Assembly: GCA_049840735.1 (NCBI GenBank)
Contig: JASGJN010000020.1
Span: 832,001-896,000 of the forward strand
Reading direction: 5' to 3'
Source of the DNA: Anaeromyxobacter sp.
GTDB taxonomy: Bacteria > Myxococcota > Myxococcia > Myxococcales > Anaeromyxobacteraceae
Length of the DNA: 64,000 nucleotides
The position numbers and the translations under genes were made by a program. The notes under the pieces were generated by a model that made no database searches, was not told where the DNA came from, and was given only the letters and a program-made list of their open reading frames with translations. This document shows positions 12,628-16,260 of the stretch, one piece after another (the first letter of the stretch is position 1; every line of letters starts with the position of its first letter).

Positions 12628-13089
12628 TCACCCGCCTTGCGGCTTGAGCGCGGCCCGCTGGACGAGTTCGCGCGCCTCGCCCATGCGCGCGGCCAGGTCG
12701 GCCGCGATGGCCAGGGCCAGCTTCAGGCAGGCCTGGGGCTTGGTCGCCTGCAGCGCCAGGAAGTCGCGGTGGGCCAGCTCCACCACCTCGGTCTGGGAGG
12801 CGGCCACCGCCGAGACCAGCCGGACGCTGCGGGCCAGGATGCCCAGCTCGCCCAGGTGCTCCCCCGGGCCGAGCACGGTCAGCTCCCGCTCGCCGCCGTC
12901 GGACTTCTGGACCACGCGGACCGACCCGGCCTTCACGATGAAGAGCGACTCCCCCACCATGCTCTCCACGAAGAGCGGGCTGCCGGCAGGGAAGGCCTTC
13001 TCCTGCGCGATGCGCGCGAAGAGCTGGATCCCCACGTCGGAGAAGTCCTTGAAGAGCGTCGAGCTGCGCAGGGCCTCGGCCACCGTCAT
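12628..13089 (-). CDS. Cyclic nucleotide-binding domain protein
   Basis: LFIVKAGSVRV, LGPGEHLGELGIL, RLVSAVA cNMP fold; no HTH. Confidence 0.85.
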   Translation of the reverse strand: MTVAEALRSSTLFKDFSDVGIQLFARIAQEKAFPAGSPLFVESMVGESLFIVKAGSVRVVQKSDGGERELTVLGPGEHLGELGILARSVRLVSAVAASQTEVVELAHRDFLALQATKPQACLKLALAIAADLAARMGEARELVQRAALKPQGG

Positions 13090-13616
13090 CGCGCTGACCA
13101 CCCTTCCCTCACGTACTGCGCCGCGTAGGCCACGTAGTGGGCCGCGCTCACCGGCAGGTGCGCCAGCTCCTCCGGCGTGAGCGGGCGCTTCACCTTCGCC
13201 GGCTGCCCCAGCACCAGCGTGCCCGGGGGGACCACCATGCCCGGCGGGACCAGCGCCCCGGCGCCGACCATCGCGTCCGGGCCGATCACGGCCCCGTCCA
13301 GCACGATGGCCCCGATGCCGATCAGGCACCGGTCCTTGACCGTACAGCCGTGCAGCACGGCGCGGTGACCGACCGTGACGTCGTCGCCGAGGGTGGTGGG
13401 ATGGGTGTGCGAGGTCACGTGGACCACGCACTGGTCCTGGAGGTTGGTGCGGGCGCCGATGCGGACGGCGTTCACGTCACCGCGGACGACGGCCCCGAAC
13501 CAGAGCGAGCCGCCCTCCCCGATCTCCACGTCCCCGATCACCGCGCTGCCCTCCATCACGAAGACCGATGGGTGCAGGCGCGGCGACTTTCCGCCGAACG
13601 GCCGGATGATCGCCAT
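13086..13616 (-). CDS. Gamma carbonic anhydrase family protein (YrdA/CaiE-like)
   Basis: IGDVEIG, VVRGDVN, NLQD, VH, VGHRAVLHGC hexapeptide repeats with His ligands. Confidence 0.92.
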   Translation of the reverse strand: MAIIRPFGGKSPRLHPSVFVMEGSAVIGDVEIGEGGSLWFGAVVRGDVNAVRIGARTNLQDQCVVHVTSHTHPTTLGDDVTVGHRAVLHGCTVKDRCLIGIGAIVLDGAVIGPDAMVGAGALVPPGMVVPPGTLVLGQPAKVKRPLTPEELAHLPVSAAHYVAYAAQYVREGWSAR

Positions 13617-13860
13617 CAACGGCGGATGCTAAGAGATGTCCCACGGTTCGCCAAGTGGCAAAGCGTGGGCCAGGTCGGTTCGCCATCGGGCCCGCTCGGG
13701 CGTGGTCTGGCTTTCGCCAGCCTCATCCCGGGTTGGGCCCGTGGCCGTGCCGACGATTCGCCGAGCCACCGGCTTGCTTGCCGGTGTGGACGTCCGCCAT
13801 GCGAAGGACGGCTCGCGGGCGAAGAGGTCGGTTGACTCGGACCGGGCGTCTTGCCGCCCG
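13612..13860 (-). ncRNA. Putative omega-RNA scaffold plus flanking guide
   Basis: Nested stems at the tnpB 3' end and element end, including CUGGC-GAAA-GCCAG and CACCGGC/GCCGGTG; boundaries are inferred. Confidence 0.55.
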
Positions 13861-15614
13861 AGACAGCAAGGGCTTCGAAGAAGGCTCCCGATTTGTTCGC
13901 GGGCGCGCTTGGTCGCATCGTAGTCGACGCGCGCCGAGCCGGGCTCGCCGGGCCGATTGAGGACGAGGAAGGCGCCGAGGACCGCGGAGACGGCGTCCCT
14001 GTCCCCTTCCAGCCCGCATCGGGGGCAACGGTGGACCCGTTCGGCAAGCGACTTCTCCACCCGGGCGCCGCAGGGGCAGTGCTGGGACAGGGCTGTGGTC
14101 TGCGTGGGGATCCGGACCACGCCGCCAACGCCCCCGGCAAACGCAGCGACGGCCCGAGCCTCCCGGTCGATGGCAGCGACCAGCGTCCCCGGCGTGAACG
14201 CGGCCACACCGCGCCCCCATCTGCGCGCCCAGACGGAGATGGCCACGTCCTCGACGAAGAGGCGGTAGCCGTGAGTCCGCACAACCTCTGCCGCGGACTG
14301 CCGAGCCCGGCCGCGCCGTGCCTGGCCGCACGACGCTGCATCGGCAGCCTGCGCTGCGCGGAGAAGGCGGTAGCGCTTCGAGAGCGAGTCCCGCCGGTGG
14401 GCCTGGAGCGGGACGCCATCGAACCGCGCCAACCGTGGACCTCCAGGGATCACCTCGACCGGCGGGAGGCCGGCGGCAGCCCGCCGGCGGGCCCGCTTCT
14501 CCTGCCGCCTGGAGAGCTGGTACTCCGCCCGGTTTGCCGCCCGGCGCGACCGCTCCAGGGCACGCTGCCTGCGCCGTTCACGGCGCTTGCGACCCCGGTC
14601 CCGCACCTTGGCCTGGCCGTCCAGCTCCATCTTTGTGAGCCGCAGGCCCGCCCCAGCCATCTGGGAGACGACAGTCAAGTTGGACACGTTGACGTCAATC
14701 CCCGCCATGCGCTCCGCTTCGTCCTTGGCCGCCGCTTCCCGCCGCGCCTGCGTCGAAGGTGAGACGTACGGCTGGGCGAGGACCATCAGATGCGCCTCGT
14801 ACCGCCAGCCACCGGGCGCATACGGCGCGCGCGTACGCACGAGGTCGACCTTGTGCCAGCGGGCCGGGTCGACCAGGTGATGGTCCAGGATGGGCTGGTT
14901 GCACGGGGCGGTGGGGAGACGGACCGGCAGGACCAGGGCGCCTCCAGCCAGGCCGCTGAAGACCAGGGCCAGCGGCCCCTGGTAGGCCCACCAGTCGGTT
15001 CGCGGGGCAGCGGCCTCGGGGAGCTGGAGTCGCCTCGGCTGCACGAAGCTGCCGTCTGGCCTGGTGTACCTGGCCCGGTGGCCGGCGAGGGAGCCGTGGA
15101 GCCGGAAAGTCTCCCATTTCCGCTCCCGGGTGTGTGAGCGGGCCCGGCCAGGGAGCCGGGTGAAGTCGAACCAGCGCCCGACGTGGAGGAGCCCATGCCG
15201 CTTGCCGGTAGCGTCGGGGAACAGGTGGCGCTCCACCGACGTCCAGACCGAGTCGGCAAGGTGCATCGCCAGCGCCTTGGTGACGTTCCGCCGGAGGTGA
15301 GGCGCCGCGTCGAGGTGGGCGTAGGCTGTCTGCTCCAGCGCCTCACGCGTGAGTCCCAGTCTGGTGCGGGTCTCGGAGGCGCTTCGGGCCCGCGCATCCC
15401 CCGCCGCCCAGTAGGCCCGCACCCGGTCCCTTGCCGTCCGCTGCAGCGCTCGCCGGAGCTGGTAGGCCCCGGAGAAGATTCCCTCGAGCCGACGTCGCTG
15501 CACCGGGTCGTGGATGTCCAGCGCGAGCCGCAGCACAGAGAGCCCGTCCTCGGGCCGGCGGCTCCAGGGCCGCTGCCGGTTCGGACCACGGGTTGGCTTG
15601 GCAGACGCGCTCAC
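13629..15614 (-). CDS. tnpB: TnpB/Cas12-like RNA-guided RuvC endonuclease (C2c8/V-U2-like clade), ~661 aa
   Basis: RuvC-I AGIDVNVS, Arg-rich bridge region, RuvC-II LFVEDV, TTALSQHCPCG..HRCPRC zinc finger, RuvC-III DRDAVSA; GTG 15614 preferred as start, the ORF extends to 15821. Confidence 0.85.
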   Translation of the reverse strand: MSASAKPTRGPNRQRPWSRRPEDGLSVLRLALDIHDPVQRRRLEGIFSGAYQLRRALQRTARDRVRAYWAAGDARARSASETRTRLGLTREALEQTAYAHLDAAPHLRRNVTKALAMHLADSVWTSVERHLFPDATGKRHGLLHVGRWFDFTRLPGRARSHTRERKWETFRLHGSLAGHRARYTRPDGSFVQPRRLQLPEAAAPRTDWWAYQGPLALVFSGLAGGALVLPVRLPTAPCNQPILDHHLVDPARWHKVDLVRTRAPYAPGGWRYEAHLMVLAQPYVSPSTQARREAAAKDEAERMAGIDVNVSNLTVVSQMAGAGLRLTKMELDGQAKVRDRGRKRRERRRQRALERSRRAANRAEYQLSRRQEKRARRRAAAGLPPVEVIPGGPRLARFDGVPLQAHRRDSLSKRYRLLRAAQAADAASCGQARRGRARQSAAEVVRTHGYRLFVEDVAISVWARRWGRGVAAFTPGTLVAAIDREARAVAAFAGGVGGVVRIPTQTTALSQHCPCGARVEKSLAERVHRCPRCGLEGDRDAVSAVLGAFLVLNRPGEPGSARVDYDATKRAREQIGSLLRSPCCLGRQDARSESTDLFAREPSFAWRTSTPASKPVARRIVGTATGPTRDEAGESQTTPERARWRTDLAHALPLGEPWDIS

Positions 15615-15875
15615 CCGCTCATCGTGAATCCGGACCCTGACATTCCGTTCAGCACGACGGAGCAGGTCGTCCGCGGATCGACGGCGACCAAACCGGATCG
15701 TTCGCGACGCCGGCCTGGCGCCGTCACCGCAAAGCGCGCCCGCGTCGAGCACGTCCTCGCTCGCCTCAACGACTGGAGCGTCCTCGGGACCACCGCCGAC
15801 GGGGGTGCCACCCGAATGCACCGTCGCCGCCCGGCCTTCCTCTACGACCTCAAGCTCGAAGTTCGGGACGCCTCT
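13632..15875. mobile_element. Non-autonomous TIR element (IS5/ISL2-derived) carrying a TnpB-like nuclease
   Basis: Ends AGAGATGTCCC (13632-13642) and GGGACGCCTCT (15865-15875) form a 9/11 inverted repeat; flanked by TA (13630-31) and TG (15876-77); removing it restores the vanZ frame (..ARASIRR*) with a TGATG overlap into the next gene. Confidence 0.85.
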
Positions 15876-15878
15876 TGG
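15690..15878 (+). pseudogene. 3' relic of an IS5-family (ISL2/IS112-like, Harbinger-related) DDE transposase
   Basis: Across frameshifts reads NRIVRD..WRRHRK/RARVEHVLARLNDWSVL/RDHRRRG../AFLYDLKLEVRDAS; contains the R..VE...ARL..W catalytic-Glu signature and ends in the right TIR. Confidence 0.75.
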
Positions 15879-16260
15879 CCCGCGCCCCGGCGCGCCGCAA
15901 GGCGATGGTCACCGCGACCGCGCCGGCCAGCGCCCCGGCGGTATCGGCGGCCCAGTCGGTCGGGTCGCTGGAGCGGCCCGGCACGTAGGCCTGGTGCCAC
16001 TCGTCGGTCACGCCGTAGAGGCTGCCCACCGCGGCGGCCAGCAGCAGCACGCGCGCAGATCGGACCCCCGCCGCGTGCAGGGCGCCGGCCAGCAGCGCGC
16101 CCAGCACCGCGTAGCCCGCGCCGTGCGAGAGCTTGTCGTGCAGGAGGAAGGCCTCGGGGAACGGCGGCCGGGCGAGCGACGAGAGCCAGGCGATGAGCCC
16201 GGCCCACGCCACCGCGGCGAGCCCCAGCGCCAGGGCGGTGCGCCTCGCTGCGCCGCTCAC
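15850..16260 (-). CDS. VanZ family membrane protein (C-terminus altered by the insertion)
   Basis: DKLSHGAGY, YGVTDEWHQAYVPGR, DWAADTAG motifs; GTGA overlap with the miaB stop. Confidence 0.85.
   Translation of the reverse strand: MSGAARRTALALGLAAVAWAGLIAWLSSLARPPFPEAFLLHDKLSHGAGYAVLGALLAGALHAAGVRSARVLLLAAAVGSLYGVTDEWHQAYVPGRSSDPTDWAADTAGALAGAVAVTIALRRAGARAKRRPELRA

Follow-up and report, generated by a model that had tools for sequence, protein, structure and literature searches.

The 64,000-nt window analysed here, a contiguous stretch of an Anaeromyxobacter sp. genome, holds a tnpB gene that seems to stand alone, and beside it a short tract of broken coding sequence that a preliminary description had taken for the frameshifted 3′ end of a DDE transposase. 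We asked what this tract is, whether it identifies the mobiliser and the ends of the element, and how the two genes have fared since. The tract is the final ~60 codons of an IS5-family-like (DDE_Tnp_4) transposase, and the insertion sequence that contains it is a non-autonomous deletion derivative of a ~2.8-kb IS5-like element with tnpA and tnpB. Its parts and surroundings are as follows.

13086..13616, minus strand: host gene, gamma-carbonic-anhydrase-like; in congeners it lies immediately downstream of the empty site
13629..15614, minus strand: tnpB, 661 aa from GTG (profile, alignment and structure-model evidence)
13630..13631, plus strand: TA target duplication on the tnpB side (in an alternative reading without duplication, flank plus terminal base)
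13632..15875, no strand: insertion sequence of 2,244 bp; sister-copy homology ends there, and congeners have the empty site
13632..13642, plus strand: terminal inverted repeat (TIR) AGAGATGTCCC at the tnpB 3′ end
15655..15690, plus strand: ~35 nt without clean alignment, probably further decayed transposase sequence at the deletion junction
15691..15878, plus strand: transposase 3′ relic, HMM positions 186-248 (peptides, alignment to sister copies and relatives)
Near 15712 (+1), 15733 (-2), 15785, 15812 and 15832 (-1 each), plus strand: indels of the relic
15747-15749, plus strand: codon of the third catalytic Glu of the transposase
15842..16207, minus strand: host membrane-protein ORF (ORF call; no Pfam match)
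15865..15875, plus strand: TIR GGGACGCCTCT at the transposase 3′ end, with 2 mismatches against the other TIR
15876..15877, plus strand: other copy of the TA duplication, now TG through erosion (congener empty site GGATGC-TA-GCCCGCG)

All five peptides quoted in the preliminary description are present, at 15691-15708, 15716-15733, 15735-15785, 15785-15805 and 15834-15875, distributed over the three plus-strand frames. The DNA of 15690-15878 aligned with intact transposase genes from four other genomes at local alignment scores of 72-143; because the maxima of 300 shuffles for each were 33-39, this similarity is not due to chance. An HMM made from nine intact relatives, run against the entire genome in six frames, matched one unstitched frame of the relic at E 3.6e-5, and the peptide joined across its breaks with X scored 72.9 bits against the same HMM, a value that is partly circular, the breaks having been placed by alignment. 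The proposed identity of the relic, as an IS5-family-like DDE transposase, is supported. Pfam and NCBIfam gave no transposase match for the three single frames, and a genome search with DDE_Tnp_4 at E<=10 missed the relic copy and matched three other places, which are sister copies. Intact relatives show the DDE triad in the motifs W(I/V)(V/I)DGT, ADGGY and RAR(V/A)EH; the relic retains only the last, and its copy lacks the full ORF, the HTH and the complete set of three catalytic residues of a functional transposase. Loss of the 5′ part had also been claimed, and only the listed HMM positions are left, with five breaks among them. The relic overlaps the right TIR, and its TAG stop has been lost as stated, 15876-15878 being TGG where the sister copies have TAG. 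The placing of the relic in a tnpB leader was mistaken: the 730-aa ORF call only runs antisense through it.

Relatives place the relic in a family. A TnpB search gave 68 loci, 25 of which match a transposase stub query. Transposase status was scored in the 26 of the 68 loci that have a pattern-found transposase-side end, the other 42, among them most of the actinobacterial loci, being excluded. In nine the transposase is complete and in a single frame, in 17 it is broken, and in six of the 17 no more than a short piece is left, lying within 331 nt of tnpB. Stub derivatives are common in the family (6/26 relatives), which the preliminary description did not note. Two near-identical ones, L014 and L015, occupy two sites of one genome that holds an intact transposase. 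A transposase-first search, which avoids ascertainment through TnpB, gave 80 loci, 64 of them with at least 300 nt upstream, and a divergent tnpB is carried by 62 of these 64 informative loci. The intact transposases L006 and L009 scored 36.9 and 38.8 bits against DDE_Tnp_4 (cut-off 24.8), with DDE_Tnp_1 also above its cut-off and HTH_Tnp_4 below; an HTH plus DDE transposase of this kind is what the relatives have in common with the IS5 family (ISL2/IS427-type, prokaryotic PHIS kin). The best NCBIfam model for the intact relatives is IS5_4, below its cut-off, with IS5 models at 38-52 bits against a required 140. The subgroup label ISL2 rests on DDE_Tnp_4 together with the partner list in the accessible part of a review (PMC13565253).

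The ends of these relatives are uniform. Flanks begin TA at 69/70 transposase-side and 32/32 tnpB-side ends, and the third flank base is G at 66/70 and 31/32, respectively. At five of the 70 transposase-side ends (L130, L131, L140, L146 and L184) the flank past the TIR starts with TAGTTAG, some TAGTTAGTTAG; these could be traces of repeated insertion and excision, or else artefacts of assembly. Most of the actinobacterial loci inspected carry tnpB alone; their TIRs differ, but the CTA...TAG junctions are the same. Another transposon type was considered for them and ruled out, since solo tnpB copies also have CTA...TAG ends; membership of IS200/IS605 or IS607 was ruled out by the TIRs and the DDE partner found throughout the loci examined. 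Dactylosporangium and its kin (L036-L071) have multi-copy solo tnpB with different TIRs, the CTAG target and a compensatory AAGG/CCTT pseudoknot.

Short TIRs, a TA-centred target and a stop codon made at the element end are traits of IS5 subgroups. The window element shares all three, its TIRs being 11 bp long, and differs in that it also carries a structured RNA and another gene, divergently oriented. It is inserted at C^TA^G, and the empty site GC-TA-GC lies between the same two host genes in four congeneric genomes (two of four loci in the first comparison; the motif is missing from a fifth locus, and no alignment was obtained for another). Among 36 congeners no filled allele was found at this site. 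Because TA is palindromic, the same junctions would arise from a 2-bp TA duplication and from blunt insertion at CT^AG if the element were taken to have one more base at both termini. The tnpB stop codon, TAG at 13631-13629, is shared with the tnpB-side TA, and the erosion of TA to TG on the other side is synonymous in the minus-strand host ORF. The element sits in the last codons of that ORF, which we take to be VanZ-like by its motifs, and gives it a new C-terminus and stop. Its final residues (15842-15877) have been swapped for KRRPELRA, encoded by the element end. A candidate hybrid outward promoter over the left junction (TTGGCG-17 nt-TAGCAT) was rejected, being below the scan threshold and unconserved among 27 ends.

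The genome, which is 94% complete, holds six copies of the element, the window one included, and none of the six has an intact transposase; the statement that mobilisation would need one in trans agrees with this. Transposase remnants cover residues 105-248, frameshifted, in C22, residues 163-248 in C26 and C16, and residues 1-83 in C13. An intact tnpB is present in the window copy alone. All five sisters are broken in this gene: C26 has a +2 insertion, C16 has lost 750 and 23 nt by deletion, and no more than fragments remain of C22, C13 and C2. C26 and C16 carry a transposase stub that is still in one frame and ends in TAG at the TIR, so that, as a rule, retention of tnpB with loss of the transposase fails: these two copies show the reverse. 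They share deletion junctions at unrelated sites, and together with L014 and L015 they would fit movement in trans.

Three further features of this genome were noted. A degenerate second tnpB-side end (G000:C16:37990-38044) directly abuts the TIR of the C16 copy, which suggests that this copy inserted next to an older one. A ~550-bp miniature copy (G000:C13:617628-618180) with the omegaRNA region, the 5′ third of the transposase and both ends could serve in trans as a source of guide RNA for the window TnpB. There are two Ku genes (G000:C13:397154-397690 and 309355-309894), and end-joining by Ku after excision could restore a clean empty site, which could then be a TnpB target.

We then considered what the other gene encodes and how its RNA is laid out, for which these further features are needed.

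14696 (D307), 14252 (E455) and 13997 (D540), minus strand: RuvC residues of tnpB, with a C4 zinc finger
Residues 583-661 of tnpB, minus strand: unstructured read-through of the RNA region
13630..13860, minus strand: omegaRNA-like scaffold of ~230 nt (covariation), overlapping the tnpB tail
13852-13849 with 13634-13631, minus strand: pseudoknot, stem-1 loop AAGA pairing with terminal UCUU
13610..13629, minus strand: predicted guide, host flank past TA (by analogy, with an inferred length)

The start of tnpB is most likely the GTG at 15614, because homologues are mostly ~640-670 aa and the starts of the two genes lie ~20-90 nt apart in most relatives in which both could be placed. D307, E455, D540 and the four zinc-finger Cys are invariant in 56/56 aligned TnpB sequences. 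A structure model (pLDDT 79.7, with residues 583-661 disordered) has Cas12m, Cas12f and TnpB as its top Foldseek matches, at E 1e-9 to 1e-6. The NCBIfam NF040570 score is below cut-off, and in a PDB sequence search the single TnpB gave no match and a profile two weak ones. From its residues and its modelled structure, we read the 661-aa protein as a TnpB with the RuvC D/E/D triad, a C4 zinc finger and a TnpB/Cas12f fold, and thus as a predicted nuclease.

Over its final 85 codons, tnpB has a dS of just 0.08 and a dN/dS of about 1.2, which suggests constraint at the nucleotide level. Of the 42 pairs predicted, 28 covary across 27 aligned ends, and 94% of cells pair, with the structure derived from the same 27-end alignment as was used for the test; none of 500 shuffles matched 28/42, and slid controls dropped to 33-41%. 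The window scaffold retains 40 of the 42 pairs. The pseudoknot loop AAGA pairs with terminal TCTT in all 108 cells across the 27 rows, and the last base of TCTT is the T of TA. Among 69 pattern-matched loci, 67 have a fully pairing pseudoknot: 52 are AAGA/TCTT, 13 are compensatory AAGG/CCTT and 2 pair by wobble, the last 2 being mismatched. Two of the AAGG/CCTT cases are independent on a 52-row tree, and the other 11 are related actinobacterial loci outside it. An Rfam search with the scaffold gave no meaningful match. Known TnpB RNAs offer a template for the geometry of scaffold end, guide start and TAM. By analogy with them, the scaffold is predicted to end at TA, the guide to start at the next G and the TAM to be CTA. 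The predicted target, CTA plus guide, is present in the empty alleles, and CTA followed by 12-16 nt of the guide occurs nowhere in the genome.

The claim that the relic has really decayed turns on its indels. Aligned with three sisters and four relatives over 184 columns, it has five (+1, -2, -1, -1 and -1), all of them confined to the window copy, and besides these it differs from C26 by 18 substitutions. Long-read consensus errors in a stub that is really in frame, like those of C26 and C16, would account for an unusually high indel-to-substitution ratio (5:8) and for the position of some indels, here and in sister copies, within short base runs. Host genes, however, have at most one frameshift per 28,275 aligned nt, and two 16S copies differ by 1 indel in 1,500 nt; these rates are far below that of the relic, and real decay is therefore favoured. 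The relic has also gained several replacement substitutions, and the 5′ deletion does not depend on whether the indels are real. We regard assembly error as very unlikely. Across tnpB there is no frameshift in 1,983 nt, and for all five frameshifting indels to fall within 184 of 2,167 nt has p=4e-6 if they are uniformly placed. The dN/dS of the gene is 0.26 in the comparison with C26 and about 0.2 in that with three relatives, and 32 synonymous and 17 replacement changes are polarised to the window branch. Fifteen codons of the relic are changed relative to C26, and in 6/6 synonymous differences the window agrees with the outgroup, so the changes of the window's own relic are almost all replacements. 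The earlier statement that selection kept tnpB thus stands for the window copy, with its low dN/dS and unbroken frame, and falls as a general rule: retention is not obligatory, because the five sisters have lost the gene.

Those same five broken sisters would suit a reading in which the whole window copy is a neutral fossil, its tnpB open for want of elapsed time and its low dN/dS inherited from autonomous ancestors. The relic points to little elapsed neutral time (8/184 sites), the target duplication and several end bases have drifted, and in indel-free simulations at 4.3% divergence 12% of runs left tnpB open. When indels were allowed at a modest rate, however, at most 0.6% did so, and the unequal distribution of frameshifts between relic and tnpB, the retained catalytic residues and the nearly complete set of RNA pairs also speak against this reading, which we judge unlikely. 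The timing argument itself is soft because branch lengths appear to differ: measured on tnpB synonymous sites, the window branch seems ~3x as long as when measured on the relic. Recombination between copies may have given a mosaic element with a different history for each half. Alternatively, tnpB could have been kept for the host, its transcript or ORF aiding expression of the downstream gamma-carbonic-anhydrase-like gene, which the insertion would have severed from its operon, or its protein having been domesticated. The insertion does part two genes that overlap, stop codon with start codon, in some congeners, and only 13 nt separate the end of tnpB from the start of the downstream gene, which has the same orientation. 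Against such a role, tnpB keeps the full RuvC triad, like its mobile relatives, the insertion is at this site in 0/36 congeners, and the promoter scan was empty, with a -35-like hexamer at the end that is unconserved; a benefit to the host is very improbable.

We consider instead that the element probably arose by deletion of tnpA, with the stub kept by its overlap with the TIR, tnpB and omegaRNA kept by selection through homing, and mobilisation left to a transposase in trans. Judging from relatives, the ancestor would have been a ~2.8-kb cut-and-paste insertion sequence with a ~250-aa HTH and DDE transposase and a divergent TnpB, each gene extending out to one element end, and its target would have been the C^TA^G seen here. 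In the window lineage an internal deletion would have taken about three quarters of tnpA. The 3′ stub may have persisted because its last codons are also the right TIR, needed in cis, and subterminal DNA, a point missed in the preliminary description. Thereafter the stub decayed, as its indels show, presumably for lack of constraint, and purifying selection held tnpB and the omegaRNA, as their substitution patterns indicate. Transcription of the omegaRNA would cross the left TIR; a pseudoknot that closes on the terminal UCUU implies a guide that would begin just past TA, copied from the host flank, and a TnpB that should cut the empty allele. By analogy with IS200/605 and IS607 homing, TnpB would cut the element-free allele at the 5′-CTA TAM and flank, and repair from the filled allele would restore or spread the element. 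Movement to new sites would call for a transposase from elsewhere, none being intact in the assembly. More tentatively, one may picture an active bacterial family of RNA-guided nucleases tied, with hardly an exception, to one IS5-like cut-and-paste lineage, which would have its own answer to the problem posed by target duplication: the TnpB pseudoknot is retained and closes on the duplicated T, the TAM is the insertion target CTA and all guides start with the fixed G of CTAG. In this picture the window copy is held at one site by TnpB homing alone.

Elements of this type have been catalogued. The accessible part of Altae-Tran et al., 2023 (PMC10691335) sets out six DDE-associated TnpB branches, DDE-1 to DDE-6, that have inverted ends, along with solo TnpB copies whose ends match these and which are taken as mobilised in trans. 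The window element resembles these in having TnpB in an inverted-end DDE element with the tnpB 3′ end within 250 bp of the element end, and in 62/64 loci its family has the arrangement that marks the class, tnpB in inverted-repeat ends beside a DDE transposase. The window clade may already be listed there; in the available passages no divergent layout, CTAG target, pseudoknot or TAM is described for it. The available text of the review PMC13565253 names ISL2, IS630 and IS1031 as the DDE partners of TnpB, citing PMC10691335, describes restorative and non-restorative homing, and deems DDE+TnpB elements rare, with their benefit open since cut-and-paste excision already breaks DNA. PMC12730594, in the part available, gives the PHIS/IS5 context. 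IS1341-type and other solo-TnpB derivatives of IS200/IS605 and IS607 have likewise lost the transposase and kept TnpB and omegaRNA, with a pseudoknot that links the stem-1 loop to the element end; they differ in having no TIRs or target duplications and HUH or serine enzymes, and their TnpB is ~400 aa as against ~660 (~580 folded) in the window. Fanzor1 and Fanzor2* in eukaryotic cut-and-paste transposons also have the TIR and target duplication within the guide-RNA scaffold, target duplications built into Fanzor scaffolds being described in the accessible part of PMC10711439. The window element differs in being bacterial, with canonical RuvC spacing and a retained pseudoknot, which is lost in Fanzor1; no ancestry is claimed.

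On this evidence the relic is real, an unremarkable remnant of a transposase within a non-autonomous element whose class has been described. The DDE+TnpB type is already catalogued, and laboratory work on the IS5-linked kind apparently does not yet exist: we found no experimental paper on IS5/ISL2-linked TnpB in a literature search whose coverage left out most subscription journals. As such the relic is routine decay of an insertion sequence, and the omegaRNA and TAM geometry of the family is of more interest. What the relic does is link a seemingly solo tnpB to a real mobiliser and fix the ends of its element. With these fixed, exact predictions follow for the scaffold (13860-13630), the guide start and the CTA TAM. 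The linkage of transposase and tnpB in 62 of 64 loci, together with many natural stub derivatives, would make this family a good system for testing what benefit the pairing of DDE transposase and TnpB confers.
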